A stretch of DNA of 64,000 bases, from assembly GCA_964625335.1 (NCBI GenBank), contig CAZVBE010000011.1, forward strand, positions 692 to 64,691, given 5' to 3'. This stretch comes from an uncultured Clostridium sp. (GTDB taxonomy: Bacteria > Bacillota > Clostridia > Ch29). The notes under the pieces were generated by a model. That model saw only the letters and a program-made list of their open reading frames with translations, was not told where the DNA came from and made no database searches. The number at the start of each line of letters is the position of its first letter. Within the stretch, counting starts at the first letter, position 1. Positions 5,162 to 53,653 of this stretch are shown here, piece by piece. The position numbers were made by a program, and so were the translations under genes.

Positions 5162-5174
5162 GGGATTACCTCCG

Positions 5175-23342: not shown

Positions 23343-23555
23343 TTGGTTGAGAAAAAAGCTAAATCAAAGATGCCAATGGAGCATCTCAACATTGCAGAGT
23401 TCAACCGTGGCCAATCCTCAAAGCTGATAAGAGGCCTGGTCGCAGATGACAAGACGGCGTTCATTCAAAAAAACGGTAAGCCTATCGCAGTTGTTATGTC
23501 CAATGCTCGCTATGAACGATTGCTAAAGAAGGGGGTCGATATCAATGAATATTAA
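23343..23555 (+). CDS. Phd/YefM-family antitoxin-like protein (orphan; TTG start) translationally coupled to hsdM
   Basis: The profile HLNIAEFNRGQSSKLIRGLVADDKTAFIQKNGKPIAVVMSNARYERLL matches Phd/YefM. An RBS AAGGAGGAG lies 7 nt upstream. The 3' end overlaps the hsdM start by 11 nt. Confidence 0.6.
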   Translation: MVEKKAKSKMPMEHLNIAEFNRGQSSKLIRGLVADDKTAFIQKNGKPIAVVMSNARYERLLKKGVDINEY

Positions 23556-25614
23556 CATATCCGAAAAATCCAACTTTATATGGAAAATAGCGGACTTGCT
23601 TCGCGGCGATTACAAGCAGAGCGAGTATGGTGATGTTATTTTGCCGTTTACCGTGCTTTGCCGTTTGGATAGCGTACTTGCTCCAACGAAAGATGCGGTT
23701 CTGGAGGTAAACAGAACCTGCAAATTTAAAAACAAGGCTCCGTTTTTAATGAAAGCAACAAAAACAGAGAGTGTGCCTGAAGGCTATAGGTTTTATAACG
23801 TCAGTGAATTCACTTTTGCCAAACTGAAAAACGATGCTACTAACATCGCGGATAATCTCACCGATTACATAAAGGGTTTCTCGGAGAATGCCCGGACGAT
23901 ATTGGAGTCTTTTGATATATACTCGCAGATTGCGCGGCTCGACAGGGCAAACTTGCTGTACCTTGTAATTTGTAAGTTTGTGGACGATATAGACCTACAC
24001 CCCGACCGCGTAAAAAATAATGAGATGGGTTATATTTTCGAGGAACTCATCCGCAAGTTTTCGGAAATGTCCAATGAAACCGCAGGTGAACACTTCACTC
24101 CGCGTGAGGTTATTCGCCTGATGGTATCTATGCTATTTAACCCAGATTTGGATAAAATTATTGACCCGGCGTTTATGGCGAAGCTGTACGACCCGGCAGC
24201 TGGAACGGGTGGGATGCTTTCGGCGGCAATAGAATATGCAGCAGAGCATTCTCCGTCAGCCATCATACGGGTTTACGGGCAAGAACTGAATGAGAAAACC
24301 TATGCCATATGTAAATCCGACACGATGATTAAAGGCGATGGCTACGAAAACATTCATCTCGGAAACAGTTTCACCGAGGATGCTTTGCCTATGGAGCGGT
24401 TTCACTATATGCTCTGCAATCCGCCGTTCGGCGTAGAATGGAAAAAGTATGAGAAGTTCATCCGCGATGAATCCGAGGACAAGGGCTTCGCCGGGCGTTT
24501 CGGCGCAGGACTGCCCCGCGTGTCAGACGGTTCATTGTTGTTTTTGCAACATATGATAAGCAAAATGATGGAATATGACCCCGAAGCCGATGGAGTCACC
24601 GGCTGCCGTCTAGGCATTGTCTTCAACGGCTCACCGCTCTTTACGGGCGATGCCGGAAGTGGTGAAAGCGAAATCCGCAAGTGGATTATTGAGAATGGCT
24701 GGCTCGAAACCATCATCGCACTCCCCGATCAGCTTTTCTATAACACGGGCATCTTAACCTATGTATGGATTGTGACGAATCGCAAAAAGGGCATACGAAA
24801 GGGCAAAATCCAGTTGATTGACGGCACGTCCTTTTTTGAGCGAATGAGGAAACCACTCGGCGAAAAGCGCAAGATGTTGAACGAAACCCACATCGCTGAA
24901 CTCACTAAAATCTACGGCAATTTTGTGGATGGTGAGTATTGCAAAATATTTGATGAGGATGACTTCGCCTACTGGAAGGTCACAGTGGAACGCCCGCTCC
25001 GGCTGAATTTTCAAGCCTCGCCGGAGCGCATTGAGCGTATCCGTGAGCAAACGGCGTTTGCCAACCTCGCCAAGAGCCGTAAACGCAAGGCGGAGGAAAT
25101 CGCTAAAGAAGTCGCTGAGGGTGTAAAGCAACAGGAAGCAATCCTCGCCGCCATCACCACGATTGACGGTTCCGTATTGTACAAGAACCGTGCCGAGTTC
25201 TCCAAGCTGCTCCAGAAGGCATTGAAAAAAGCGGGGCTTGATGTAAAAGCGCCTCTCATGAAAGCTATCCTTGCCGGACTGTCTGAGAAGGACGAAACCG
25301 CCGGAATTTGCACCGATGCCAAGGGGAATCCTGAACCTGATACAGATTTGCGCGACACCGAGCAAATACCATTCACAAGAATAGTGCCGGAAAAAGAAGC
25401 CATCGACGATTACATCGAGCGGGAGGTCAAACCTTATGCGCCCGATGCATGGGTGGATTATTCCAAAACAAAAAAAGGCTATGAAATCCCGTTCACGCGT
25501 CACTTCTATAAATATGAGGAACTCGGCGATTCCGAAGAAACCTTGCTTGAAATCCATTCGCTGGGTGAGCGGATTCAGTCAGGGATTAATCGGTTGTTTG
25601 CGGAGGAGGTGTGA
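23545..25614 (+). CDS. hsdM: Type I restriction-modification system methyltransferase subunit (N6-adenine)
   Basis: It has an HsdM N-terminal domain and a SAM-binding region DPAAGTGGML. The catalytic motif is LCNPPFGVEW. It is 689 aa long. Confidence 0.9.
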   Translation: MNINISEKSNFIWKIADLLRGDYKQSEYGDVILPFTVLCRLDSVLAPTKDAVLEVNRTCKFKNKAPFLMKATKTESVPEGYRFYNVSEFTFAKLKNDATNIADNLTDYIKGFSENARTILESFDIYSQIARLDRANLLYLVICKFVDDIDLHPDRVKNNEMGYIFEELIRKFSEMSNETAGEHFTPREVIRLMVSMLFNPDLDKIIDPAFMAKLYDPAAGTGGMLSAAIEYAAEHSPSAIIRVYGQELNEKTYAICKSDTMIKGDGYENIHLGNSFTEDALPMERFHYMLCNPPFGVEWKKYEKFIRDESEDKGFAGRFGAGLPRVSDGSLLFLQHMISKMMEYDPEADGVTGCRLGIVFNGSPLFTGDAGSGESEIRKWIIENGWLETIIALPDQLFYNTGILTYVWIVTNRKKGIRKGKIQLIDGTSFFERMRKPLGEKRKMLNETHIAELTKIYGNFVDGEYCKIFDEDDFAYWKVTVERPLRLNFQASPERIERIREQTAFANLAKSRKRKAEEIAKEVAEGVKQQEAILAAITTIDGSVLYKNRAEFSKLLQKALKKAGLDVKAPLMKAILAGLSEKDETAGICTDAKGNPEPDTDLRDTEQIPFTRIVPEKEAIDDYIEREVKPYAPDAWVDYSKTKKGYEIPFTRHFYKYEELGDSEETLLEIHSLGERIQSGINRLFAEEV

Positions 25615-26921
25615 GTGTGGATAACTGCAATCAGCGATATCCGTGGATTGGAGTAATACCAGCTTCTTGGGATATAGTTCGCATTAAGCATATAGTTGCT
25701 TCTGAACCAAATTCAATGGTGGATGGACCCTTCGGATCAGACCTCAAGAACGAAGAATACGTCTTAGATGGGGTTCCTATTATCCAATTAAACAACATTG
25801 GCATTGGTTACCACAATATCGAAAATCTGAAGTTTATTACAGAAGAAAAAGCCGACCAGTTAAGTCGGCATAGAATTTGGCCGGGTGATGTCGTTATGGC
25901 AAAAATGGCTGATCCGGTTGCGCGGGGGACCATTGTGTCTGATGTGTACCCCTGTTATATCATATCCGCAGATTGTGTGAGGATAAAATTATCAAATGCC
26001 TGTCTACCACAGTTTCTCGTTTATGCATTGAATTCTTTTGTTAAACACGAAGCAGAACTGTTGGCCACAGGTACAACCCGAACGAGAATCAACCTTGGCA
26101 TCGCAAAAAATCTGCATGTTGTTTTGCCTAACCTTGAAATTCAACAGACAATCGTGCAGCATCTCGACCGCCGAACCGCCGAAATTGACAGCTTACTCGC
26201 CGACCTGCACGCCCAAGCGAAGATGCTCGACCGCTACAAGCGGGAACTCATTGCCGATGTGGTTACAAGTGGTTTGGATAAAGCCGCACTACGAAAAGAT
26301 AGCGGCGCAGATTGGATTGGTAAAGTGCCGTCACATTGGGAAATGACCACGCTGCGAGCCTTCCTAAAAGCCGTGAGCGTTAAGAATAGTGTCGATTTAC
26401 CATTGCTCTCAGTCGAGCGTGAGAAAGGCGTTGTTGACCGTGAAACGGAAGGCTCGGAGAATAATCACAACCGCATTCCCGATGACTTAAGTAATTATAA
26501 GGTTGTTCGCACAGGGGATTTTGTTATGAACAAGATGAAGGCTTGGCGCGGATCCTATGGAGTTTCAAGATATGACGGAATCGTAAGCCCGGCGTACTTT
26601 GTGTTTGCCTTGAATTTCCCAAACCCAGCCTTCTTTAATTACGCAATACGAAGTACGAAGTATATTGGTTTTTTTGGACGGGATTCATACGGTATCCGTA
26701 CCGACCAGTGGGATTTCAAAATCGAGCGGATTAAGAATATACCCTTTGCAGTACCGCCAGTTGAAGAACAACAAGCAATAGTCGAGTATCTTGACGACAA
26801 AATCCCATTGATTGAAGGTTTAATCGCAGACATCAACGAGCAGATAGAAAAGCTGAAGCAATACCGCCAGATCATCATCCACGATGCGGTCACGGGTAAA
26901 ATTAAGGTAACGGAGGGATAG
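25611..26921 (+). CDS. hsdS: Type I restriction-modification system specificity subunit (two target recognition domains)
   Basis: It has duplicated TRD architecture with conserved central and C-terminal coiled-coil regions. A GTG start overlaps the hsdM stop (GTGA). Confidence 0.85.
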   Translation: MSVDNCNQRYPWIGVIPASWDIVRIKHIVASEPNSMVDGPFGSDLKNEEYVLDGVPIIQLNNIGIGYHNIENLKFITEEKADQLSRHRIWPGDVVMAKMADPVARGTIVSDVYPCYIISADCVRIKLSNACLPQFLVYALNSFVKHEAELLATGTTRTRINLGIAKNLHVVLPNLEIQQTIVQHLDRRTAEIDSLLADLHAQAKMLDRYKRELIADVVTSGLDKAALRKDSGADWIGKVPSHWEMTTLRAFLKAVSVKNSVDLPLLSVEREKGVVDRETEGSENNHNRIPDDLSNYKVVRTGDFVMNKMKAWRGSYGVSRYDGIVSPAYFVFALNFPNPAFFNYAIRSTKYIGFFGRDSYGIRTDQWDFKIERIKNIPFAVPPVEEQQAIVEYLDDKIPLIEGLIADINEQIEKLKQYRQIIIHDAVTGKIKVTEG

Positions 26922-26924
26922 GAA

Positions 26925-29900
26925 ATGACTATAGATACAAAAGAGCGAACCTTTGAACAGGAAATTGAATACTGGCTGACGAACGGTGCGAAAAAAAACG
27001 ACCGATACGTCAAGGGCAGTCCCTCCGCGTTTAGCCGTGAATTGGCGATGGATACAGGGGCGGTTATCGCTTTTGTGAAAGATTCACAGCCTAAAGCATG
27101 GGTGGATTTGGAAAAACGTCACGGCGCGGATGTGGAGCGGGAGTTTTTGAAGCGCTTGTGCGCCGAACTTGACAAGCGTGGGATGATTGATGTGCTTCGC
27201 CACGGAATCGTTGATCTTGGTGTGCCCATTCGGCTCGCCTATTTCAAGCCGGGAAGTGGTATGAACAAGAGCCTTTCGGATTTGTACGATAAAAACGTCC
27301 TCCAAATAACACGTCAGGTCAAATACAGTACCGCTAACGAAAACTCTATCGATACGGTCATCTTTCTGAACGGACTTCCGATTATTACCATTGAACTCAA
27401 GAACCCGCTCACGGGGCAGACATACAAAAACGCCATAGACCAGTATAAAAATGACCGCAACCCGCGTGAATTATTGCTCGCTTCCAAAAAGCGGGCTATC
27501 GTGCATTTCGCTGTGGATACCGAGGAAGTCTGGATGACAACGTGGCTTAAGAAGCTGGATACAGTTTTTCTCCCGTTCAACAAAGGCTACGACAAGGGAG
27601 CGGGCAACCCGCCTGTGAAGGGCGATTACCGCACCTCATACCTTTGGAAGGAAGTCATGCGGAAGGACAGCTTGCTCGACATCCTCCATCGCTTTGTCCA
27701 GCTAACAAAAGACGAGAAAACAGGTAAAGAGAAGCTGATATTCCCGCGCTATCACCAGTTGGACGCAGTGCGCGAGATCGTGGATGACGTTTTCAAAAAC
27801 GGGTCAGGCAAGAACTACCTTATACAACATTCAGCAGGTTCAGGCAAATCGAATTCTATAGCATGGCTCGCCCATCATCTGGCGAACCTGCACGATGCCA
27901 ACAACGAAGTGGTGTTCCATAGTATTATTGTAATTACTGACCGCCGTGTTCTCGACAAACAGCTTCAGCGAGACATCTACAATATGGAGCACAAGCCTGG
28001 CGTAGTTGTACGCGTCGATAAAAACTCGAAACAACTGACCACCGCTCTTGAAAAGGGAGAGAAAATCATCATCTGCACTTTGCAAAAATTCCCGTTTGTG
28101 GATGTGAAAAATGTGGCGACCGCCGGAAAGCGGTTTGCAATTATTGTTGACGAAGCGCACTCTTCCCAAACGGGCAAGGCGAGTGAGCGGCTTAAGGAGG
28201 TTCTCGCTGACATTTCCGCACAGGGCGAGGACGCCATCGAAAAAAAGCTCCACGAGTATGCCGTTGAGGAAGCGAAGGCCGAAGCGGAGGAAATGGATCC
28301 CGATGAGGAAATCGCGGCTGAAATGGCGGCGCATGGTCAGCAGGATAATCTTTCGTTTTTTGCGTTCACCGCTACGCCGAAGCAAAAAACGCTTGAGATA
28401 TTTGGAACAAAGACCGCCGCTGGAAAACCCGAACCGTTTCATCTTTATAGCATGAGACAGGCTATCGAGGAGGGGTTCATTTTCAACGTCCTCGAAAACT
28501 ATACGACATACGAGACCTACTTCCAAATCGGAAAGAAAATCGCCGATGACCCTGTCTATGGGAAAAGTCAGGCAAACAAGGCTCTTGGTAAGTATATGAG
28601 CTTGCACCCGCATAACCTCGCCCAAAAGACCGAGGTCATTGTGGAACATTTCCGCAGTCAGGTTCAGCACCGTATTGGCGGCAAAGCGAAAGCGATGCTC
28701 GTTACAGGATCGCGGCTCCATGCCGTTCGTTACTTTTTTGAGTTCCAAAAGTACATCAAAAAAATGGGCTACACGGACTTGGGTGTCTTGGTGGCATTTT
28801 CAGGCACGGTTAAAGACAATGTGACCGGAGAGTTTAAGGAATACACAGAAGCAAATCTGAACAAGTTTCCTGACACGGAAACGGTAGATAAATTCGCGAC
28901 CGGGGAATATCAGCTTCTGCTCGTCGCCGAGAAATACCAGACCGGATTTGACCAGCCGCTTCTGCACACAATGTATGTCGATAAGAAGCTGTCCGGCGTT
29001 AAGGCGGTTCAGACGCTCTCCCGCGTCAATCGAACCTGCCCCGGTAAAACGGAGACCTTTATATTGGACTTCGTCAACTCCCCGGAGGATATTGAGAAAG
29101 CGTTCCAGGATTACTATCAGGGAACCGGCGTAGCCGAGACAACCGACCCGAACACCATCTACGACATTAAAAATGTACTGGACAGCTTTATGCTATATAC
29201 GGACAGCGAGATTGATGCCTTCGCCAAGGTGTTCTTTAAGGAATCAAAGACGCAGGGCAACATCGACTTGGCAAAGCTGAACTCTTTCATTGACCCTGCC
29301 GTCGACCGTTACGAGGCATTGACCGAAGAACAGGATAAAATGGACTTCAAAGGCGCTCTCTCTAAGTTCATTCGCCTGTATTCATTCCTCACGCATATAA
29401 TCAGCCTTGGCGATGCGAACCTCCATAAATTCTATGCTTACGCTAAGTGCCTGATTCGCAAGCTGCCAAAAGATGGAGGAACACGCACACCGAGCCTTGA
29501 TAACGATGTGACACTTCAGTATTACCGTCTTCAGAGGGTATACGAGGGAACTATCAGTTTAGTAAAAGAGGACGGCGTGTTGTATGGCAAAACTTCCGGT
29601 ACGGGACTTCCTCTTGAAGATGAGCAAGAAAATCTCTCAGTGATTTTATCAAAACTCAATGAACGGCTCGGCACAAATTTCACTAACGAGGATAAGGTTC
29701 TTGAGCAGATAGTGGAGGATATGGCTACCATCGACGAATTAGTGCTACGTGCCAAGAATCCGCTTGACCTCTTCAAAATCATCTACGACAACACTATTAT
29801 GGATGTCGTTCTCAGCCGTATGACTAAGAACCAAGAATTTTGCGAGAGATACCTTGAGGACGAGGAGTTTCGTATAGAAATCGATAAAATACTTCTTCCC

Positions 29901-29930
29901 CTGGTACACGCTCGACTCTCAAAAATATAA
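26925..29930 (+). CDS. hsdR: Type I restriction enzyme endonuclease/helicase subunit
   Basis: An N-terminal nuclease region precedes SF2 helicase motifs (QHSAGSGKS, IVDEAHSS, TATP). It lies 4 nt after hsdS. Confidence 0.9.
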   Translation: MTIDTKERTFEQEIEYWLTNGAKKNDRYVKGSPSAFSRELAMDTGAVIAFVKDSQPKAWVDLEKRHGADVEREFLKRLCAELDKRGMIDVLRHGIVDLGVPIRLAYFKPGSGMNKSLSDLYDKNVLQITRQVKYSTANENSIDTVIFLNGLPIITIELKNPLTGQTYKNAIDQYKNDRNPRELLLASKKRAIVHFAVDTEEVWMTTWLKKLDTVFLPFNKGYDKGAGNPPVKGDYRTSYLWKEVMRKDSLLDILHRFVQLTKDEKTGKEKLIFPRYHQLDAVREIVDDVFKNGSGKNYLIQHSAGSGKSNSIAWLAHHLANLHDANNEVVFHSIIVITDRRVLDKQLQRDIYNMEHKPGVVVRVDKNSKQLTTALEKGEKIIICTLQKFPFVDVKNVATAGKRFAIIVDEAHSSQTGKASERLKEVLADISAQGEDAIEKKLHEYAVEEAKAEAEEMDPDEEIAAEMAAHGQQDNLSFFAFTATPKQKTLEIFGTKTAAGKPEPFHLYSMRQAIEEGFIFNVLENYTTYETYFQIGKKIADDPVYGKSQANKALGKYMSLHPHNLAQKTEVIVEHFRSQVQHRIGGKAKAMLVTGSRLHAVRYFFEFQKYIKKMGYTDLGVLVAFSGTVKDNVTGEFKEYTEANLNKFPDTETVDKFATGEYQLLLVAEKYQTGFDQPLLHTMYVDKKLSGVKAVQTLSRVNRTCPGKTETFILDFVNSPEDIEKAFQDYYQGTGVAETTDPNTIYDIKNVLDSFMLYTDSEIDAFAKVFFKESKTQGNIDLAKLNSFIDPAVDRYEALTEEQDKMDFKGALSKFIRLYSFLTHIISLGDANLHKFYAYAKCLIRKLPKDGGTRTPSLDNDVTLQYYRLQRVYEGTISLVKEDGVLYGKTSGTGLPLEDEQENLSVILSKLNERLGTNFTNEDKVLEQIVEDMATIDELVLRAKNPLDLFKIIYDNTIMDVVLSRMTKNQEFCERYLEDEEFRIEIDKILLPLVHARLSKI

Positions 29931-43703: not shown

Positions 43704-44264
43704 GTGTGGTCATTGGCAAAGGACGGTACCAACAGAGGCGGTGCTCGAACCGGAGCAGGAGCAAAAAAGAAGGCACTGGCCGAAAAAATAGCCGAAGGAA
43801 ATCCCGGCGGCAGGAAGTTAACGGTTATGGAATTTACAAATACAGCGGATCTCAAAGGCCAGGAAATGCCGGAGCCTAATAAAATGCTGGAAGCTATACA
43901 AAAGGATGGCAAGGCACTGGTGGCGGGAGAAATATATAAAGCTACATGGATATGGCTGGATGAACGTGGCTGTTCTTCTCTTGTTTCCCCTCAGCTTCTT
44001 GAACGTTATGCCATGAGCGTAGCCAGGTGGATTCAATGCGAAGAAGCTATTACTGAATATGGTTTTTTAGCAAAGCATCCGACGACAGGAAACGCCATTC
44101 AAAGCCCCTATGTGGCAATGGGGCAAAACTATATGACCCAGACTAACCGTTTATGGTATGAGATTTTTCAAATCGTTAGAGAAAATTGTGTCGGTGAATA
44201 CAAAGGTGTAAATCCTCAAGATGATGTAATGGAGCGTCTACTCAGTGCCCGGCGGGGCAAATAA
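43704..44264 (+). CDS. Phage terminase small subunit, P27 family
   Basis: The N-terminal AKKKALAEKIAEGNPGGRKL and the overall pattern match P27-family TerS. Confidence 0.7.
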   Translation: MWSLAKDGTNRGGARTGAGAKKKALAEKIAEGNPGGRKLTVMEFTNTADLKGQEMPEPNKMLEAIQKDGKALVAGEIYKATWIWLDERGCSSLVSPQLLERYAMSVARWIQCEEAITEYGFLAKHPTTGNAIQSPYVAMGQNYMTQTNRLWYEIFQIVRENCVGEYKGVNPQDDVMERLLSARRGK

Positions 44265-44295
44265 ATACAGCAAATTAAAAAGGCGGTAGAAAAAT

Positions 44296-45696
44296 ATGCG
44301 GATGGAAAAATTGAAGATTGAAAAGCTTATCCCCGCCGAACATAACCCACGTAAAGATTTAAAGCCCGGTGATAAAGAATATGAGAAGTTAAAACGCTCT
44401 ATTTCTGAATTTGGCTATGTGGAGCCTGTTATCTGGAATAAACAGACCGGCAATGTGGTTGGTGGCCATCAAAGATTAAAAGTTTTAATAGATTTAGGGC
44501 TGACTGAAGTGGACTGTGTAGTAGTTGACCTAGATGAAACTCGTGAAAAAGCTTTATGTATTGCCCTTAATAAGATTCAAGGTGACTGGGATGAAGATAA
44601 GCTGGCAAATCTCATGGCAGAATTTGATGCAACTGACTTTGATGTCTCTCTTACCGGTTTTGATGATCAGGAGATCAGTGAACTATTGGGGCTAAAGGAA
44701 GAAGTTATAGAAGATGATTTTGACGGAGAGGCTCCCATTGAACCCATAACTAAGCTGGGTGATATCTGGCTTTTGGGGCAACAGCGCTTGCTTTGTGGTG
44801 ATTGTACTAACATAGAAGCTGTGGAAAAATTAATGGCCGGGGATAAAGCTAACTGTGTTATTACTTCTCCTCCCTACGCCATGCAAAGAAAAGATGACTA
44901 TGGTGGCATCCCTCCTGATGATTACCCTGCTTGGTTTTTAAGGGTAGCTCAAAATGTCTATCGGGTGCTGGATGACAGCGGGTCCTTTTTTGTAAACATT
45001 AAAGAACATGTGGAAAAGGGTCAGCGTTCCCTCTATGTATTTAAGACCATAATCGCTATGGCGGAAGCTGGCTGGCGATATGTAGACCAGCTTATCTGGA
45101 CTAAAATAGGGCTTCCCGGCGGCTGGCCTAATCGTTTAAGAAATGATTTTGAACCGGTACACTTTTTTACGAAGAAAGAGGAAATCGACTGGATGGTACA
45201 GTTTGTGGAAGCTGACGAAGATAAACTCAAAACAATATCTGTGGATTTAGTAGATATGTATGAAGACATCTTCCACTTTACCCGGTCTGAGAAGATTAAA
45301 TTTAAGCCTCGGGATGTGGGAAAAGTATCAGCTAAAATTCGGGTTTCCAGTAAAAACAATAAATCTAAAGGCAGATCCGGCAACATCAGCGTCAGCGGCA
45401 AGTTTAAAAAAGGAATCGCCAGAGCAGGTAATGTGCTGCAGATTCCGGGCAATCAGGATTCACTGAAGCACTCGGCGGTATTTCCGGTTAAGCTCCCGGC
45501 CTTCTTTATTAAGCTGACCACCGACACCGGGGATATGGTATATGAACCTTTTGCTGGTTCCGGTACTACGCTTATGGCAGCTGAACAGCTAGGCCGCAAA
45601 TGTTGTGCTGTTGAGCTTTCACCGGCCTACTGTGATCTTATAGTAAAACGCTGGGAAAGCTTCACTGGCGAAACTGCTAGAAAGCTGGAGGTGTGA
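44296..45696 (+). CDS. ParB-like nuclease N-terminal domain fused to beta-class amino DNA methyltransferase
   Basis: The ParB N-domain is LIPAEHNPRKDL...GGHQRLKV. MTase motif IV is ITSPPYAM and motif I is EPFAGSGTT. Confidence 0.8.
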   Translation: MRMEKLKIEKLIPAEHNPRKDLKPGDKEYEKLKRSISEFGYVEPVIWNKQTGNVVGGHQRLKVLIDLGLTEVDCVVVDLDETREKALCIALNKIQGDWDEDKLANLMAEFDATDFDVSLTGFDDQEISELLGLKEEVIEDDFDGEAPIEPITKLGDIWLLGQQRLLCGDCTNIEAVEKLMAGDKANCVITSPPYAMQRKDDYGGIPPDDYPAWFLRVAQNVYRVLDDSGSFFVNIKEHVEKGQRSLYVFKTIIAMAEAGWRYVDQLIWTKIGLPGGWPNRLRNDFEPVHFFTKKEEIDWMVQFVEADEDKLKTISVDLVDMYEDIFHFTRSEKIKFKPRDVGKVSAKIRVSSKNNKSKGRSGNISVSGKFKKGIARAGNVLQIPGNQDSLKHSAVFPVKLPAFFIKLTTDTGDMVYEPFAGSGTTLMAAEQLGRKCCAVELSPAYCDLIVKRWESFTGETARKLEV

Positions 45697-45697
45697 A

Positions 45698-46948
45698 ATG
45701 GAAAACATAATGAAATTGGAGCGAATACCAATAGATAAACTTAAAGCGGCTGAGCATAACCCAAGAAAAGATTTAAAGCCCGGGGATCCGGAATATGAGA
45801 AGCTTAAGCGTTCTATTCAAACCTTCGGTTATGTTGAACCGGTTTTATGGAACAAAAGAACAGGCAATATTATAGGCGGCCATCAGCGATTTAAAGTATT
45901 GGTTGAACTAGGCCAAAAAGAAATTGATTGCGTTGTTGTGGATATGAATTTAGCTGATGAAAAGGCACTAAACATCGCTTTAAATAAAATAAGCGGTGAC
46001 TGGGACAAAGATAAACTGATGCTTTTAATTGCGGACTTGCAAGGTTCAGATTTTGATGTATCCCTTACTGGTTTTGATTCTATTGAACTGGATGCTCTTT
46101 TTAAGGATTCTCTTAGGGAAGGCATTAAAGAGGATGACTTTGATGTAGAAGCAGAGCTTAAAAAACCTGCAGTTACTAAACTTGGGGATCTATGGCTTTT
46201 AGGAAAGCATCGTCTTATTTGCGGCGATTCAACTAAAGCTGAAATCTTTGAACTTTTGATGGATGGAAAACGGGCAAACCTAACTGTAACTGACCCTCCA
46301 TATAATGTCAATTATGAAGGAACTGCTGGTAAAATTAAAAACGACAATATGGGAAATAAAGCATTCTATGATTTTTTGCTCGCGGCCTTTAAAAATATTG
46401 AAACAGCGATGGCAAAGGATGCTTCTATTTATGTTTTCCATGCCGATACCGAAGGATTAAATTTTCGTAAGGCATTTACCGATGCGGGTTTTTATCTTTC
46501 CGGCACTTGTATCTGGAAAAAGCAGTCGTTGGTGCTCGGGCGCTCCCCCTACCAGTGGCAGCATGAGCCGGTGCTCTTTGGCTGGAAAAAGTCTGGTAAG
46601 CACAACTGGTATGCGGACCGCAAACAGACCACCGTTTGGGAATTTGAAAAGCCGAAAAAGAATGCAGACCATCCTACGATGAAGCCGGTAGCATTGGTGG
46701 CTTACCCCATTTTAAATTCAAGCTTGACTAATTGCATCGTGCTTGACCCTTTTGGCGGTTCGGGCAGCACTTTAATTGCCTGTGAGCAGACAGATAGGAT
46801 TTGCCATATGATCGAGCTTGATGAAAAGTTCTGCGATGTCATTGTTAAGCGCTATATTGAGCAGGTAGGAAACGATGATGGTGTATTTCTTTTAAGAAAT
46901 GGTGTCGAATATAGGCATCAAGATGTTTCGGGCCCAGATACTGCTTAA
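45698..46948 (+). CDS. ParB-like nuclease N-terminal domain fused to beta-class amino DNA methyltransferase (paralog 2)
   Basis: The ParB N-domain has IDKLKAAEHNPRKDL...GGHQRFKV. Motif IV is TDPPYNVNY and motif I is DPFGGSGST. It begins 1 nt after the paralog-1 stop. Confidence 0.8.
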   Translation: MENIMKLERIPIDKLKAAEHNPRKDLKPGDPEYEKLKRSIQTFGYVEPVLWNKRTGNIIGGHQRFKVLVELGQKEIDCVVVDMNLADEKALNIALNKISGDWDKDKLMLLIADLQGSDFDVSLTGFDSIELDALFKDSLREGIKEDDFDVEAELKKPAVTKLGDLWLLGKHRLICGDSTKAEIFELLMDGKRANLTVTDPPYNVNYEGTAGKIKNDNMGNKAFYDFLLAAFKNIETAMAKDASIYVFHADTEGLNFRKAFTDAGFYLSGTCIWKKQSLVLGRSPYQWQHEPVLFGWKKSGKHNWYADRKQTTVWEFEKPKKNADHPTMKPVALVAYPILNSSLTNCIVLDPFGGSGSTLIACEQTDRICHMIELDEKFCDVIVKRYIEQVGNDDGVFLLRNGVEYRHQDVSGPDTA

Positions 46949-47045
46949 TTTGCATATTTTAAAGGATATTACTCACATACCACTTGCTATTTACAAACTA
47001 AAGAGTGATATATGTTACTACCAAACACGAAAGGTGGTATGAAAA

Positions 47046-47831
47046 ATGAGGATTGAATACAATGTGACCGGCACGAAACGAAAAGAGTTAGTCAATGCTG
47101 TTAGCCAGGTATTGAGCGCTCCATCAAAATACCTAGGTGCCCCTACTTTTGCTTATGAAGTGGGCGGTTACAACATTGACAAGAACGGGGTGCTTGAAGG
47201 CGAGGATAGTCCAGGGCTGGTTGCCGACCTTTTAGGATTGCACGATTTTAAAGCGGTTAGCGAAAAATATGATGCTCCGCTTCCGGAGGCAGAACCGATT
47301 CCAGAGGATGTGCAAATTTCATGTGAAGCGGAAGTCGGAGACAGAATTAGTCCTTATAAGGACTCTGGCGAACCTGTCTTATATGACCCAGCACAGCAAG
47401 AAACCGATTCTTTGACCATCGAAATGCCAAGGTCAGGATTTTCGGATTTAGCCCTTGAAAATTTAAAGCGAGTGGTAGAAAGCAAGGAAACACTCATTAA
47501 GAAGGCATTAGACACTGATTCCATTCCGGTCATCATTGGAGAAGAAAAGATTATTTTCCCTTGGTTTTACGGGGAGTACAGTTCTGATGAAGTCAAAGCC
47601 TATAGCAATTTTATTGCCGCCCTTTGCGAAATGGCCAGGACGCAGAAAAGGGTTAATGCCACTGAAAAGGATGTCAATAATGAAAAGTATGCTTTTCGGT
47701 GTTTCCTCCTTCGCCTTGGTTTTATTGGTCCGGAATACAAGAAAGAGCGCAAAGTTCTTTTATCAAAACTTTCCGGAAGCAGCGCTTTCAAAAATGGGCA
47801 ACCAGCCTATGGGGAGGCTAAATCCCGATGA
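47046..47831 (+). CDS. Hypothetical phage protein sharing a ~40-aa C-terminal module with the downstream amidoligase
   Basis: The C-terminal NEKYAFRCFLLRLGFIGPEYKKERKVLLSKLSGSSAFK aligns with the amidoligase C-terminal NEKFAMRTYLNRIGLIGEEFANCREHLTAALTGSAAWR. Confidence 0.5.
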   Translation: MRIEYNVTGTKRKELVNAVSQVLSAPSKYLGAPTFAYEVGGYNIDKNGVLEGEDSPGLVADLLGLHDFKAVSEKYDAPLPEAEPIPEDVQISCEAEVGDRISPYKDSGEPVLYDPAQQETDSLTIEMPRSGFSDLALENLKRVVESKETLIKKALDTDSIPVIIGEEKIIFPWFYGEYSSDEVKAYSNFIAALCEMARTQKRVNATEKDVNNEKYAFRCFLLRLGFIGPEYKKERKVLLSKLSGSSAFKNGQPAYGEAKSR

Positions 47832-48052
47832 AAGAAATACACCCCGAAATGCTAAAACAACTTAAGAGTTACTACCCATCAGGCACAAGGGTTGTTCTTG
47901 TCAAAATGGATGACCCCTATACTAAGCTGACGCCCGGCGAAAAAGGCACTGTTACCGGTGTGGATGATATGGGAACTATTCATGTAAACTGGGATTCTGG
48001 CAGCTCCTTGGGAGTGGCTTTTGGTGAAGATATGTGCCGGAAAATTGATTAA
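47828..48052 (+). CDS. DUF4314 domain protein
   Basis: YPSGTRVVLVKMDDPYTKLTPGEKGTVTGVDDMGTIHVNWDSGSSLGV matches the DUF4314 pattern. Confidence 0.55.
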   Translation: MKEIHPEMLKQLKSYYPSGTRVVLVKMDDPYTKLTPGEKGTVTGVDDMGTIHVNWDSGSSLGVAFGEDMCRKID

Positions 48053-48189
48053 TAAACTACACAAAAACGGCTAAAAAATTGTGTAAATTATCTCGGAATT
48101 ATCGGATAATTGCCTTGCTATATATGCCTTTTAGAGTGATATATATACATACCCCGAGGGGAATACACACTTTAAAAGGAGCGAGGAGC

Positions 48190-49090
48190 ATGCTAAAAGC
48201 GAGATACGGAATCGAGATTGAGTTTACAGGAATCACAAGAAGCCAGGCAGCAAAAATTGCAGCGGAACATCTTCAGGGCACATACAGCGAAGGCGGTACT
48301 TACTACGACATAAAAAAGGTTACAGCACCGGACGGCAGGGTTTGGAAGTTTATGAGCGACGGTAGCATCAACTACCAAAAGAAACAAGGCGGCAGAAAAG
48401 TTTCCGCAACAAGAGATTACAGCGTGGAACTGGTAAGCCCCATTCTAACCTACCGGGAGGACATTGAAGCCTTGCAGCAACTAGTAAGAAAGCTTCGGAA
48501 GGCCGCAGCCTTTACCAACAACAGCTGCGGAATTCACATTCACCTTGACGGGGTCGACCACACACCAAGAAGCATTAGAAACTTTGTCAACATCATCGCC
48601 AGCAAGAACGACCTTTTTTACAAGGCTTTAAAAATTGCACCACAGAGAATGAACTACTGCAAAAAAAATGGACAGCCTTTTGGTTGAAAAGCTAAACCGC
48701 AAAAAGCCAACAACCACGAGACAAATCGAGGACATTTGGTACGCAGGCTACAGCGAAAACCGAGGCACTCACTACCATAACAGCCGCTATCATTTCCTAA
48801 ACCTCCATAGCTTTTTCACCGGAAACCATACGGTAGAGCTTAGAGGCTTTAACAGCGAACTGCATGCCGGGAAAGTTAGAAGCTACATAGTTCTTGCCCT
48901 AGCCTTAAACAACCAAGCCTTAACGCAAAAATTCGCTTCAGCCAAAAAGCCCCAGGTTGAAAACGAAAAGTTCGCCATGAGAACCTACTTAAACAGAATC
49001 GGCCTTATCGGGGAAGAATTTGCAAACTGCAGAGAGCATTTGACAGCGGCTCTTACTGGCTCAGCAGCTTGGCGGTTTCGGGCAGCCTAA
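48190..49090 (+). pseudogene. Amidoligase (Amidoligase_2/GS-like) gene split by +1 frameshift at A8 homopolymer (48661-48668)
   Basis: The N-terminal half (GIEIEF..., SCGIHIHLDG) runs 48190-48687. The C-terminal half (THYHNSRYHFLNL...TVELRGFN) is in the next frame at 48668-49090. Removing one A restores a single roughly 300-aa ORF. Confidence 0.6.
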
Positions 49091-49121
49091 GCTGCCCTTT
49101 CGGGAAGGAGGATAAGAAGCT

Positions 49122-49565
49122 ATGAATAAGAAACTTTATATCGCCTACGGGTCAAACCTCAATCTACCCCAAATGGCGGGCAGATGCCCCACAGCGAAAG
49201 TTGTCGGGGTAAGTGAAATGACGGATTGGAGGCTTCTTTTTAGGGGCCCCCACGAGGGCGCTGTGGCCACAGTGGAGCCATTTAAAGGCGGTAGGGTTCC
49301 GGTGCTGGTGTGGGAAATAACTGCAGCGGATGAGGCGGCTTTAGACCGCTACGAAGGCTGGCCTTTCCTTTACCGCAAGGAAACAGTGAAGGTTAAGCTA
49401 AACGGAAAGGCTGTGGAAGCCATGGTCTATACTATGAATGAAGGTAGGCCTCTAGGAAAGCCAAGCTTATATTATTACTCAATTATCTTTGATGGCTATC
49501 AGGCTCAAGGCTTTGATGTGGAAATCCTGCGCCGAGCTACTGAAGCATTTGTGGAGGAGAAGTAA
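49122..49565 (+). CDS. Gamma-glutamyl cyclotransferase-like (AIG2/GGCT family) protein
   Basis: The N-terminal LYIAYGSNLNLPQMAGRCP and YEGWP...Y motifs match the GGCT/AIG2-like fold. It is adjacent to the amidoligase, as in phage amidoligase-GGCT cassettes. Confidence 0.7.
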   Translation: MNKKLYIAYGSNLNLPQMAGRCPTAKVVGVSEMTDWRLLFRGPHEGAVATVEPFKGGRVPVLVWEITAADEAALDRYEGWPFLYRKETVKVKLNGKAVEAMVYTMNEGRPLGKPSLYYYSIIFDGYQAQGFDVEILRRATEAFVEEK

Positions 49566-49639
49566 ACAAATACTGGCTATCAGGGATAGTGGCGCTACCA
49601 ATATGTTTGATGTAAGTAGAGTTCAAGGAGGCAAGGCAT

Positions 49640-49849
49640 ATGCAAAAAGGAGATATATTCAAAACAAAAGCCAGTGAGAAGTTTTACCAGATAGTGGGTC
49701 GCTGGGGAGGTAGCTTAGTATTAGCACCTTTTGATGAGGATGACGAGCAGGTTTTAGTTTATTCTGCTTCGGAACTTGAAGAACTAATTGCACTTGGACA
49801 TTTTGTGAAACTGCATCCGACCGGCATCAAAGCAAAAAACAAAAAGTAA
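49640..49849 (+). CDS. Small hypothetical phage protein
   Basis: An RBS AAGGAGG lies upstream. The ORF is 69 aa. Confidence 0.4.
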   Translation: MQKGDIFKTKASEKFYQIVGRWGGSLVLAPFDEDDEQVLVYSASELEELIALGHFVKLHPTGIKAKNKK

Positions 49850-49966
49850 ATCAATCTATAAATAAAACGCAAAATAAAGAGGGCTCCAAAACGGGGGTCC
49901 TTTTTTGTTGTAGGAAAGGAGGCGGCGGTTATTCGGAAACTAAAGAAATACACCCCAACTCGTTTT

Positions 49967-51526
49967 ATGTCGAAAGACTCAGTTTATAATAAGGATGCCG
50001 CCGACTATGCAGTTTCTTTTATACAGGCTCTAAATCATACCAAGGGGACATGGGCAGGAAAACCCTTTGAACTTATAGACTGGCAAGAGCGAATTGTGCG
50101 GGACTTATTTGGCATTTTAAAGCCTAATGGATATAGGCAGTTTAATACTGCTTATGTAGAGATCCCCAAAAAAATGGGGAAAAGCGAGCTCGCTGCAGCT
50201 ATTGCTCTCCTTCTTACTTGCGGTGATGGCGAAGAGCGGGCTGAAGTCTATGGCTGCGCTGCCGATCGAAACCAAGCCTCTATTGTTTTCAATGTAGCGG
50301 CAGACATGGTGAGAATGTGCCCGGCTCTGGCAAAGCGAGTAAAAATACTTGATTCTATGAAGAGGCTTATCTATCAGCCCACAGGCAGTGTATATCAGGT
50401 GCTTTCCGCCGATGTCAAAAACAAGCACGGCTTTAACACTCACGGGGTGGTATTTGATGAGCTTCATACCCAGCCTAATAGAAAGCTATATGACGTTATG
50501 ACCAAAGGTAGCGGAGATGCTCGGATGCAGCCTTTGTATTTTCTTATAACCACTGCGGGGGATAACCAAAATAGTATATGCTGGGAGGTACATCAAAAGG
50601 CAGTAGACATTATAAACGGGAGAAAAAATGATCCTACTTTCTACCCTGTCATTTACGGAGCCACCGTAGAGGATGACTGGACAGACCCAAAAGTGTGGAA
50701 AAAGGCAAACCCCTCTCTTGGAATTACAGTTACTATGGATAAGGTTAAAGCCGCTTTTGAGTCGGCAAAACAAAACCCTGCCGAAGAGAACAGCTTTAGG
50801 CAGCTCCGCCTTAACCAATGGGTAAAACAAGCTGTGCGCTGGATGCCGATGGATAAATGGGATGCCTGTGCATTTAATGTGGACCTGGAAGAACTAAAAG
50901 GCCGGGTTTGCTGTGGCGGGCTAGACCTTTCATCTTCTACTGACATTACAGCCTTCGTGCTAGTTTTCCCTCCGGTAGATGAGGACGATAAATACAGTAT
51001 CCTCCCGTATTTTTGGATTCCGGAGGAAACAATAGATCTTCGTGTCCGGCGGGATCATGTTAATTATGACTTGTGGGAGAGGCAGGGTTTTCTAAAAACT
51101 ACAGAAGGCAATGTTGTTCACTACGGCTTTATAGAATCTTTCATTGAAGAGTTAGGCTTAGACTATAACATTCGTGAAATTGCTTTTGATCGCTGGGGAG
51201 CTGTGCAAATGACCCAAAATCTTGAAGGCATGGGCTTTACTGTCGTTCCCTTCGGTCAAGGATTCAAAGATATGGGCCCTCCGACAAAAGAATTGATGAA
51301 ACTGACATTAGAGGAAAAGATAGCTCATGGTGGTCATCCGGTTCTGCGGTGGATGATGGACAACATTTATGTTAGAACTGACCCGGCGGGCAACATCAAG
51401 CCGGACAAAGAAAAAAGCACCGAGCGCATTGACGGTGCTGTGGCATTGATTATGGCCCTGGATAGGGCGGTTCGAAATGAGAACCGTGGAAGTATCTATG
51501 ATGGGCGGGGGATATTGATTTTATAA
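49967..51526 (+). CDS. Phage terminase large subunit (Terminase_1/PBSX-like)
   Basis: The ATPase Walker A region is EIPKKMGKSEL and Walker B is VVFDELH. A C-terminal RNaseH-like nuclease domain is present. Confidence 0.85.
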   Translation: MSKDSVYNKDAADYAVSFIQALNHTKGTWAGKPFELIDWQERIVRDLFGILKPNGYRQFNTAYVEIPKKMGKSELAAAIALLLTCGDGEERAEVYGCAADRNQASIVFNVAADMVRMCPALAKRVKILDSMKRLIYQPTGSVYQVLSADVKNKHGFNTHGVVFDELHTQPNRKLYDVMTKGSGDARMQPLYFLITTAGDNQNSICWEVHQKAVDIINGRKNDPTFYPVIYGATVEDDWTDPKVWKKANPSLGITVTMDKVKAAFESAKQNPAEENSFRQLRLNQWVKQAVRWMPMDKWDACAFNVDLEELKGRVCCGGLDLSSSTDITAFVLVFPPVDEDDKYSILPYFWIPEETIDLRVRRDHVNYDLWERQGFLKTTEGNVVHYGFIESFIEELGLDYNIREIAFDRWGAVQMTQNLEGMGFTVVPFGQGFKDMGPPTKELMKLTLEEKIAHGGHPVLRWMMDNIYVRTDPAGNIKPDKEKSTERIDGAVALIMALDRAVRNENRGSIYDGRGILIL

Positions 51527-51563
51527 GAGAAAAACAGCGCCTCTGGTTTTTATTAAAAACCTG

Positions 51564-51593
51564 TTGACAAGGAAATACTTTCTGGTTTATAAT
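51564..51593 (+). promoter_or_regulatory. Sigma-70-like promoter of moron cassette
   Basis: TTGACA (51564-69), an approximately 18-nt spacer and TATAAT (51588-93), about 40 nt upstream of ATG 51637. Confidence 0.5.
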
Positions 51594-51636
51594 AATAACC
51601 ACAAGGTTAATATTATAAATAAAGGAGGCGCATTTT

Positions 51637-51996
51637 ATGGCAAGCAGGGTAATTCAAATTTCTTTTAGTGACACAGAGTACGCACATTTGGAAGCTAAAG
51701 CTGAGGCTGAGGGAATGACAATAGCACTTTATATCAAGAACAAAGTACTGGAGGACACTGAATTTAAAAGGTGGTTTCGTGAACTCCTCGAGAGAGTTTC
51801 GCGTATTAAGCCGGGAACACCATTCAATATTAAAATGGTATTGTCCACTGATTGGGCAAGCATCGATCGGGGTGTTCGTCTTGCGATGGGGCGTGCATTC
51901 TACAATTATGTCGTTGCTGGGAAAGTTGAAGGAATTAGTCCTACTCATAAGGATAGCGCTAATGTTCAGTGGTATGAAGCTGGAGGTGCAGAGTAA
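51637..51996 (+). CDS. Moron gene 1: hypothetical protein (possible RHH/DNA-binding N-terminus)
   Basis: It is a 119-aa ORF with an RBS AAGGAGG. It appears AT-richer by eye than the flanking terminase and portal genes. Its stop overlaps the start of moron gene 2 (ATG at 51996). Confidence 0.5.
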   Translation: MASRVIQISFSDTEYAHLEAKAEAEGMTIALYIKNKVLEDTEFKRWFRELLERVSRIKPGTPFNIKMVLSTDWASIDRGVRLAMGRAFYNYVVAGKVEGISPTHKDSANVQWYEAGGAE

Positions 51997-52370
51997 TGTT
52001 GTACTCAGTAGATACCGGAAAATATGTTGAGAAACTTCCTCACAAAAAAGAATTTGATCGTTGGATGAAAAACCTCTCAGCTTCAGACTATCAAAATGTT
52101 ATTGATGCATTAAACCAGAAGGTGGATTTGAGCGATATTAATACATCAAGCTGGATTCCTGGAAATGACTGGACTGGGACGGTATACGAACCACTTTATC
52201 ATGCTTGTGGAAACAACAAAGATGCTTCCGGTTTGTTTTTCGGATTAATTCTCTTTGACTTATTGATGCGCAGAGAATACGCTGTGTGGGGTTTTGGGCG
52301 ATATGAAAAAGATGGCATTCCAATTCGAGGAACAACTTATTTCTTGCTAAATAACCCGCCAGCACGATAA
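51996..52370 (+). CDS. Moron gene 2: hypothetical protein
   Basis: It is a 124-aa ORF coupled to gene 1. An intrinsic terminator follows. Confidence 0.5.
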   Translation: MLYSVDTGKYVEKLPHKKEFDRWMKNLSASDYQNVIDALNQKVDLSDINTSSWIPGNDWTGTVYEPLYHACGNNKDASGLFFGLILFDLLMRREYAVWGFGRYEKDGIPIRGTTYFLLNNPPAR

Positions 52371-52387
52371 ACATAATAAACCACTGA

Positions 52388-52416
52388 ACCGCTTCGTGAG
52401 ATGAAGCGGTTTTTTC
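52388..52416 (+). terminator. Rho-independent terminator ending moron cassette
   Basis: The hairpin is accgcttcgtgagatgaagcggt followed by TTTTT. Confidence 0.7.
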
Positions 52417-52441
52417 ATGCCCAAAATTAGGAGGAACGCCT

Positions 52442-53653
52442 ATGAGAATACCCTTTTTATCAAGAATATTTCGTTCCCGGGCCAGTCCGGAGAACAGTCT
52501 CTGGGGGAGTGCCTACAGTTTTTTCTTTGGTACCACCCCCAGTGGTAAAACAGTCAATGAAAGAACGGCCATGCAGACCACAGCAGTTTATGCTTGCGTG
52601 AGAGTGTTGGCGGAGGCGATCGCCTCGCTGCCGCTTCATACCTACCAGTATACAGATAAAGGCAAGGAAAAAGCCCTGGACCATAACCTTTACTATCTTC
52701 TGCATAGCGAACCTAACCCTGAGATGACTTCATTTGTGTTCCGGGAAACACTGATGGGTCATCTTTTACTTTGGGGAAATGCCTATGCTCAGATTATTCG
52801 GGATGGCCGGGGGAAAGTGGTCGCACTATACCCGCTCCTACCGGACAAGATGACGGTGGATCGCACTGAAAGAGGGGAACTCTTTTACCTCTACAACAAG
52901 GAAGGGATTAATTATTCTCTGCGTAGTGATGAAGTCCTTCACATACCCGGTCTGGGTTTTGACGGGCTGGTGGGCTATTCCCCCATCGCTATGGCCAAGA
53001 ATGCCATCGGCATGGCCATTGCCACCGAGGAGTATGGGGCGAAGTTTTTTGCCAATGGGGCAAATCCCGGCGGCGTGTTGGAACATCCGGGTGTGGTCAA
53101 GGATCCCTCGAAAATTCGGGAGAGCTGGAATGCGGTATACCAGGGAAGCGGTAACGCCCACCGGATTGCGGTGCTGGAAGAAGGAATGAAATTTCAAAGT
53201 ATCGGCATCCCGCCGGAACAGGCTCAGTTTCTGGAAACCCGGAAATTTCAGCTGAATGAAATCGCCCGGATATTTCGGGTGCCGCCCCATATGGTGGGTG
53301 ACCTGGAACGATCAAGTTTCTCCAACATCGAACAGCAATCACTGGAGTTTGTCATGTACACGCTGGACCCGTGGGTGATCCGGTGGGAACAGGCCATTCA
53401 AAGAGCCTTGTTTTCAGCTACAGAGAAAAAAGCATATTTTGTGAAATTCAATGTAAATGGTCTGCTGCGGGGCGATTACCAGAGCCGGATGCAGGGTTAT
53501 GCAGTGGGTCGGCAAAACGGATGGCTCTCCGCTGATGATATTCGGGAACTGGAAGACATGAACAAGCTGCCGGAGGGCAGTGGCGGCAGTACCTATCTGG
53601 TGAACGGCAATATGGTGGATATTGGCCATGCAGGCACCTGGGTCAACAAATAG
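52442..53653 (+). CDS. Phage portal protein, HK97 family
   Basis: The conserved portal core GNAYAQII, GYSPIAMA and LNEIARIFRVPPHM is present. The gene order is TerL-portal-protease-capsid. Confidence 0.85.
   Translation: MRIPFLSRIFRSRASPENSLWGSAYSFFFGTTPSGKTVNERTAMQTTAVYACVRVLAEAIASLPLHTYQYTDKGKEKALDHNLYYLLHSEPNPEMTSFVFRETLMGHLLLWGNAYAQIIRDGRGKVVALYPLLPDKMTVDRTERGELFYLYNKEGINYSLRSDEVLHIPGLGFDGLVGYSPIAMAKNAIGMAIATEEYGAKFFANGANPGGVLEHPGVVKDPSKIRESWNAVYQGSGNAHRIAVLEEGMKFQSIGIPPEQAQFLETRKFQLNEIARIFRVPPHMVGDLERSSFSNIEQQSLEFVMYTLDPWVIRWEQAIQRALFSATEKKAYFVKFNVNGLLRGDYQSRMQGYAVGRQNGWLSADDIRELEDMNKLPEGSGGSTYLVNGNMVDIGHAGTWVNK

Follow-up and report, generated by a model that had tools for sequence, protein, structure and literature searches.

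A one-base insertion splits the amidoligase gene of a Clostridium prophage cassette that also encodes a degenerate amidoligase paralogue

Introduction

In a 64,000-nucleotide (nt) stretch of DNA from an uncultured Clostridium sp. (contig CAZVBE010000011.1, positions 692 to 64,691; hereafter the window, with positions counted from its first letter), a gene for an Amidoligase_2 enzyme is broken into two reading frames at a run of eight adenines (A8), upstream of an intact gene for a gamma-glutamyl cyclotransferase (GGCT). The locus raises the question of whether this break is a sequencing error, a switch, a recoding signal or a mutation, and of what the 261-amino-acid (aa) protein encoded upstream of the ligase (p261) is. 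The reading favoured here, with a probability of about 0.7, is that the region is a known accessory cassette whose ligase was recently inactivated by a real insertion that is not recoded, that p261 is a degenerate paralogue of the ligase, and that ligase and GGCT form a write/erase pair. The genes concerned are the following.

47046-47831, + strand: p261, a 261-aa open reading frame (ORF), named 'virulence protein' by NCBI and 'amidoligase enzyme' by PHROG 2443
47828-48052, + strand: DUF4314 protein, 74 aa (PF14192, E 1.5e-33), overlapping the p261 stop in an ATGA
48190-48687, + strand: 5' part of the Amidoligase_2 gene, family residues 1-159, then 6 codons out of frame and a stop codon; product of 165 aa
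48661-48668, + strand: A8 homopolymer, one A more than the A7 of close relatives
48668-49090, + strand: 3' part of the Amidoligase_2 gene in the +1 frame, beginning with an ATG, family residues 160-299
49122-49565, + strand: gamma-glutamyl cyclotransferase of the GGACT/AIG2-like type, 147 aa, intact (PF06094, PF13772, PHROG 2520)

The positions of these ORFs are those given by an earlier note on this DNA, and its assignment of the two enzyme families was confirmed by the profile scores. The GGCT, an intact ORF and a predicted enzyme, reached 47.8 bits with PF06094 (cut-off 22.8) and matched PF13772 and PHROG 2520 (E 6.6e-44) as well, while the DUF4314 ORF belongs to PF14192 with 115 bits against a cut-off of 27.

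One additional adenine in the amidoligase gene

The A run is exactly 8 bases long and the frame downstream of it is +1 relative to the upstream frame. Deletion of one A reunites the two frames, as had been predicted, into an ORF of 299 aa that scores 246.3 bits with Amidoligase_2 (PF12224, residues 4-239; cut-off 22). Its whole length is matched, at 80-99% identity, by more than 100 database proteins that likewise measure exactly 299 aa. The window itself holds no uninterrupted Amidoligase_2 ORF, the first frame stopping at 48687.

The exact p261 of the window is encoded on 20 contigs of JGI, Logan, ENA and NCBI origin, and the 165-aa truncated product is recorded in the same four sources. The A tract was read in five of these loci (L001-L005), which come from two JGI metagenomes and three Logan assemblies of SRA runs and represent at least three sequencing projects. 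Over 4.7-8.8 kb each of them matches the window with 100% identity, all five have A8, and in all the amidoligase was called as two ORFs of 165 and 136 aa. The extra A is thus real DNA. Since all its carriers are one clone, the A8 is one mutational event.

The relatives of this clone have an uninterrupted gene. Three loci with 94% (L006), 97.9% (L087) and 98.5% (L088) nucleotide identity carry A7 and an intact 299-aa ORF. Among 80 IMG/VR loci, the corresponding Lys-Lys site reads AAAAAG or AAGAAG in nearly all cases, and an A7 tract was found in one only (L055). A full-length amidoligase gene is present in 102 of the 107 loci that could be read through, and the 5 short ones all belong to the window's clone. 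The insertion from A7 to A8, confined to this lineage, truncates the ligase at residue 159. An apparent 376-nt insertion in the amidoligase of L065 and L077 was rejected as an artefact in which the tail of the adjoining p261 gene had been joined to the match.

Signs of decay in the ligase allele

The conceptual translation of the ligase retains all family-invariant residues (E9, E11, E80, H116, H118, H194, H196, R199, E216 and R218). On the other hand, the window allele alone has the substitutions C62Y, T94A and G106A, at positions where C is found in 107 of 110 homologues, T in 92 and G in 108, and these are missing from six intact alleles at least 98% identical to it. Compared with L006, the whole ligase gene shows 4 non-synonymous and 3 synonymous differences, distributed as 4 and 1 over the 5' half and 0 and 2 over the 3' half. 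For the large terminase (TerL) and the second methyltransferase gene of the locus, the ratio of non-synonymous to synonymous rates (dN/dS) between the window and L006 is about 0.06, and under the constraint of the family about 0.7 non-synonymous differences would be expected in the ligase where 4 were observed, these counts being small. The excess of non-synonymous change in this allele is therefore to be regarded as suggestive. The simplest reading would be that the accessory unit is under relaxed selection in lysogens and that the slip from A7 to A8 is a recent inactivating mutation.

Alternative explanations for the A8 tract

Of the alternatives, reversible phase variation survives best, and it is nevertheless improbable. 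According to it, slipped-strand switching between A7 and A8 would keep the ligase off in lysogens and on in a subpopulation. The A7 found at the site in four close relatives indicates a homopolymer that is mutable within this sub-clade, and a reversion in one step would bring the frame back. However, the tract is not kept in the wider family, in which AAG interrupts it in about 76 of the 80 loci, and the intact version of the clone's allele, i.e. the repaired 299-aa sequence, was absent among ~15 billion proteins. Every locus of the clone that was read has A8, with no other tract length seen, and the allele has in addition accumulated the above substitutions at conserved residues.

Programmed recoding, in which a +1 shift of the ribosome or transcriptional slippage within the A run would yield a full-length ligase, has a smaller chance still. 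Within an A8, re-pairing of Lys codons is possible in every frame, and long A runs are prone to polymerase slippage; moreover, the downstream frame is the +1 frame, in agreement with the programmed +1 frameshift that the earlier note had considered. Known devices of this kind, such as the +1 frameshift of prfB, the -1 frameshift of dnaX and the transcriptional slippage in insertion sequence elements, have sites that are conserved across orthologues, whereas the A8 site is confined to a single clone. Among the amidoligase orthologues neither a conserved slippery tract nor a split frame was found, and no homologue requires a shift. Neither a stimulatory structure nor an Rfam element was detected around the site, and a promoter/terminator scan together with an Rfam comparison gave no RNA family and no terminator- or promoter-like signal around the A8 site and the cassette. 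Given a tract that the family does not keep, closest relatives whose A7 leaves the gene in frame, and 102 uninterrupted genes in 107 loci, a recoding device is not supported. The locus resembles instead the homopolymer frameshift pseudogenes, in which a one-base change in an A run likewise splits an ORF into two overlapping frames, and a false lead is thereby removed, the split amidoligase being best read as a mutated copy and not as a recoding signal.

A sequencing or assembly error, with A7 as the true sequence and an intact gene, had also been proposed, and homopolymers are indeed error-prone on some platforms. The recurrence of A8 in independent assemblies of one clone, drawn from JGI, Logan, ENA and NCBI sources, makes such an error very unlikely, and the same pipelines gave A7 for L006, L087 and L088. 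Finally, a split gene working as two reassembling polypeptides of 165 and ~140 aa is scarcely credible, as the in-frame ATG at 48668 corresponds to Met160 of the family protein but sequence inspection found no Shine-Dalgarno (SD) site before it, the break lies inside the conserved core and the gene is split in no other lineage.

p261 is related to the ligase over most of its length

The earlier note had also described homologous C-terminal tails of about 38 aa in p261 and the amidoligase and had proposed that they form a common docking or substrate module. The similarity is real and longer than described, the tail itself covering about 50 aa in each protein.

47652-47801, + strand: homologous tail in p261
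48935-49084, + strand: homologous tail in the amidoligase

BLASTP of p261 against the repaired ligase aligned 85 aa with 35% identity (E 4e-13), over twice as many as the note had described, and hhalign placed p261 residues 120-252 (47403-47801) on ligase residues 112-298 over 133 columns (E 4.6e-15), ligase residues ~150-210 being missing from p261. With more diverse alignments, hhalign extended the match to p261 2-253 and ligase 7-299 (232 columns, E 1.7e-28). The N-terminal 80 residues of p261 alone gave E 0.0035-0.03; three p261-like sequences had been removed from the diverse amidoligase alignment, with which the N-terminal E value was 3.6e-9 and without which it was 0.0035. Three divergent, intermediate p261-like proteins matched the ligase over ~240 residues in plain BLASTP (E 1e-14 to 1e-16). 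Both N-termini have an invariant T-G-x-x-R motif and a (D/N)-G motif in common, and the order of predicted strands and helices is the same in the AlphaFold2 (AF2) models of the two proteins. For p261, no Pfam family was matched at E<=0.1, Amidoligase_2 included, and no NCBIfam model; its homology to bona fide Amidoligase_2 members was established by hhalign and by PHROG 2443, a family that matches both proteins over their full length (p261 E 3e-61) and thus already groups them. By these comparisons, p261 is an amidoligase paralogue and not an unrelated protein with a borrowed module.

Consequently, only a part of the docking-module proposal holds. The tail is homologous in the two proteins, as claimed, but the proposal is too narrow, the homology spanning most of both. 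An independent module gained separately by two unrelated proteins is accordingly improbable, although the tail (ligase 240-299) lies beyond residue 239, the last one covered by the Pfam Amidoligase_2 model, and is not found in the amidoligases of Arthrobacter phages, which match over residues 5-233 only. It is present in the ligases of Bacillota phages. Against such a module, the homology runs on into the enzyme core over 133-232 columns and includes the T-G-x-x-R motif, a profile search with the tail alone, as the earlier note had advised, returned only short p261-type fragments and no other architecture, and the longer relatives of p261 carry no other Pfam domain.

The conserved acidic, His and Arg residues of the ligases are all lost from p261. 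E11 is changed to N, H116 to T, H118 to E, R127 to L, E216 to I and R218 to P, while the HYHxSRYH block (194-206) is deleted and E9 falls on a variable column. In ligases of the glutamine-synthetase fold, metal and ATP are bound by residues of this type. With these catalytic-type residues replaced or deleted, p261 is therefore most likely non-catalytic. For a phage protein that is very common and is labelled either 'virulence protein' or 'amidoligase', the annotation can thereby be refined to that of a catalytically degenerate amidoligase paralogue that can occur without the ligase.

The AF2 model of p261 has a predicted local distance difference test score (pLDDT) of 89, apart from a disordered linker at residues 76-120, and its best-probability matches in BFVD are phage amidoligases. 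The amidoligase model, with a pLDDT of 70, was not used as a search query. A PDB sequence search gave no match for p261 or for the amidoligase.

Two further observations concern this protein. Its linker (window 47271-47405) is acidic and Pro-rich and, although predicted to be disordered, is well conserved among homologues of more than 65% identity (PLPEAEPVPEDVQIPYEAALGGR.SPY.DYEEPP), so that it may be a site of binding and not just a passive spacer. A JGI protein of 307 aa with 15 member sequences (P0128) joins, in one frame, a p261 homologue and the C-terminal half of DUF4314 (PF14192), a fusion that apparently arose by deletion.

A promoter-like element heads each of two units

The region is a conserved accessory cassette of temperate tailed Bacillota phages, located between the genes for the small terminase (TerS) and ParB-methyltransferases and the gene for TerL, and composed of two units, the first with p261 and DUF4314 and the second with Amidoligase_2 and the GGACT-type GGCT. 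Each unit is headed by one copy of a promoter-like element.

46983-47017, + strand: copy 1, CTTGCTAT-N9-AAAGAGTGATATATGTTA, with 2 mismatches, ending 28 nt before the p261 start
48114-48148, + strand: copy 2, CTTGCTAT-N9-TTAGAGTGATATATATAC, ending 41 nt before the amidoligase start

In alignments, the 137-nt spacer before the amidoligase contains one block that is far more conserved than the adjoining coding DNA. All 52 of the unique sequences from upstream of amidoligases contain the 15-mer TTTAGAGTGATATAT without a mismatch, and a 16-mer core has 2 matches in the 64 kb of the window against 0.22 expected. The bipartite motif was also found upstream of p261 homologues in many loci. In the nearly invariant form CTTGCTAT-N9-TTAGAGTGATATAT(GTA), of about 31 nt, it occurs in more than 120 IMG/VR stretches among the matches listed. 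In the loci in which it was noticed (L007-L103, L104-L221) it is always on the strand of the gene, and its core 12-mer was found on that strand only in the loci collected earlier. Among those same matches, the element lies 20-60 nt before the start codons of 45 p261-like genes, 24 amidoligase genes and 71 other genes, the latter encoding mostly small proteins and including large serine recombinases. It is present as well in phages devoid of the ligase (L101-L103) and in phages of Streptococcus, Erysipelothrix and Gardnerella.

The element combines a TTGCTA box resembling a -35 box with TGATATAT, which resembles an extended -10 box. A promoter function is probable, served by a factor of the phage itself, and this factor may be a phage-encoded sigma or an ArpU/RinA-like protein, a candidate put forward because a DUF1492 gene is located upstream of the HNH gene. 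The conserved element had no match in Rfam, and nothing relevant to the motif came from a search of the literature. As a marker of accessory-gene slots in many phages, the element may perhaps be the more useful by-product of this analysis.

SD sites of the GGAGG type precede p261, DUF4314, the amidoligase (a strong AGGAG) and the GGCT. Two pairings were noticed in the leader sequences. A hairpin stands immediately after the element (48149-48163) with the sequence GCC-GAAA-GGC in most loci and CCCC-GA/AA-GGGG in the window, L007, L034 and L055, the change being apparently compensatory. On both sides of the p261 SD site, TACCG...CGGTA or TACCA...TGGTA can pair.

A broader proposal, to which we give limited credence, would join these elements. 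In it, p261 would be a pseudo-enzyme that acts as scaffold, regulator or decoy through its core and three-helix tail, together with the ligase or in its place; the units would be interchangeable cargo slots under CTTGCTAT-N9-TTAGAGTGATATAT, read by a phage sigma or ArpU/RinA-like factor and common to Bacillota and Gardnerella phages; and the A7/A8 tract would be a reversible off-switch of the ligase.

Distribution and proposed chemistry

The gene order p261-DUF4314-amidoligase-GGCT-TerL was found in essentially all 80 IMG/VR loci, DUF4314 directly following p261 in nearly all of them, and also in the isolated, active Terrisporobacter phage TPDSL_ph1. The amidoligase-GGCT pair is widespread and strongly conserved, with 80-88% aa identity in hosts that range from Bacillus to Clostridia. 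Among the matches listed for GenBank phage records, p261 and the ligase occur together in approximately 29 records, p261 stands alone in 24 and the ligase in 18, counts from which divergent homologues may be missing. The p261-only set includes Streptococcus Javan phages, Erysipelothrix phi1605, Gardnerella vB_Gva_AB1 and a C. botulinum phage. Therefore, p261 is not an obligate partner of the ligase. For DUF4314, the literature search yielded no paper.

The 299-aa amidoligase is unusually conserved, and proteins of exactly this length with 80-88% aa identity were encountered in genomes bearing the labels Bacillus cereus, Virgibacillus, Anaerocolumna, Clostridium, Acetobacterium, Ammonifex and Sedimentibacter.

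Amidoligase_2 proteins have the glutamine-synthetase-like fold of ATP-dependent carboxylate-amine ligases. The ligase of the cassette would form, with ATP, an amide of the gamma-glutamyl type on an amine-bearing target, the GGCT would remove the gamma-glutamyl group as 5-oxoproline, and together they would constitute a write/erase or protect/deprotect pair.

Comparison with known systems

The association of Amidoligase_2 with an AIG2/GGCT neighbourhood in Firmicutes phages is attributed to Iyer et al. 2009 in the passages of PMC11253131 and PMC11318856 that cite it, and the role predicted there, as relayed by both, is peptide or amino-acid ligation, e.g. a modification of the cell wall by which superinfection would be prevented. 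In the present prophage these two families are likewise adjacent, but here the ligase is frameshifted, and for this subfamily the function is a predicted one.

An arrangement of 'two amidoligases' followed by a gamma-glutamyl cyclotransferase is already in the literature, for Terrisporobacter phage TPDSL_ph1 and for the C. clostridioforme LM41 prophages phi13-alpha and phi13-epsilon. The layout is identical to that of the window, with a methyltransferase, the p261 homologue (annotated as amidoligase, PHROG 2443), a small ORF, the amidoligase and the GGCT, at a protein identity of ~41-43% to the window. These papers annotate only, and the missing catalytic-type residues of the first 'amidoligase' are left unmentioned in them.

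The 'virulence protein' or 'virulence-related protein' of Streptococcus Javan phages, Erysipelothrix phi1605, Gardnerella vB_Gva_AB1 and Clostridium CWou-2020b is a full-length p261 homologue (28-48% identity) that occupies the same slot, from the DNA methyltransferase to TerL, in phages with no detectable amidoligase or GGCT.

PafA and Dop of the pupylation pathway are paralogous glutamine-synthetase-like enzymes, one acting as a ligase and the other as a deamidase/depupylase. The cassette is similar, by description only, in having an enzyme of the carboxylate-amine-ligase fold beside a diverged paralogue in another role; however, Dop retains its active site whereas p261 does not, and the cassette has no genes for a Pup-like tag or a proteasome. 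Klebsiella CfmP, considered as a further comparison, was discarded as irrelevant, the enzymes concerned being of the ATP-grasp type.

Points that weigh against the favoured reading

Several points count against an inactivated ligase beside a degenerate paralogue. The loss of ligase function is deduced and not observed, and an A8 tract permits low-level transcriptional or +1 ribosomal slippage, by which some full-length ligase could be made. The three derived substitutions are few and could be neutral or older than the frameshift. All A8 carriers being one clone, they give no measure of how long the allele persists, and consensus assemblies mask minority A7 reads. As to p261, the structural support for its fold is weak, since Foldseek matches to BFVD have E values of 0.07-0.2 and none was obtained in the PDB. 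Lastly, the proposed gamma-glutamyl chemistry is deduced from family membership only, and the literature search found no experimental work on this phage amidoligase subfamily; with its layout reported in two prophage papers, the system is, as the earlier note stated, known and uncharacterised. For experiments, the intact relatives (L088, L006 and TPDSL_ph1) would be better starting points than the allele of the window.

Prophage setting and neighbouring genes

Upstream of the cassette lie an HNH gene, the gene for TerS and two ParB_N-N6_N4 methyltransferase genes, and downstream of it TerL followed by the portal gene. One further ORF is located between the GGCT and TerL.

49640-49849, + strand: conserved ORF of 69 aa, kept in close relatives

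This ORF is found at another position in L065 and L077, and it had no family match in the Pfam and PHROG comparisons.

The GGCT gene is itself altered in two loci. In the sister prophage L087 (JGI 3300001682 SAHD_10000319), which is 97.9% identical to window positions 44192-53087 and whose amidoligase is intact with A7, the GGCT gene (4932-5376) carries an independent one-base insertion, GAAAT[A]GACGG, that splits it into 40 and 100 aa. In L051 the GGCT is short too, with 109 aa.

The first 22 kb of the window consist of host genes (catalase, SerC/SerA-like, radical SAM), and these are followed by a type I restriction-modification (R-M) system at 23.5-30 kb. The element is therefore a prophage in a chromosome of Bacillota type. 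The R-M genes (HsdM and HsdR, 23545-29930) separate the host genes from the phage replication genes, the latter encoding a family A DNA polymerase and a VapE-like primase/helicase, and the R-M system may be cargo at the edge of the prophage. The two methyltransferase genes upstream of the cassette (44296-46948) are tandem paralogues encoding proteins of 466 and 416 aa; compared with L006, the first has 79% nucleotide identity and the second 96%, an unequal divergence that suggests module exchange.

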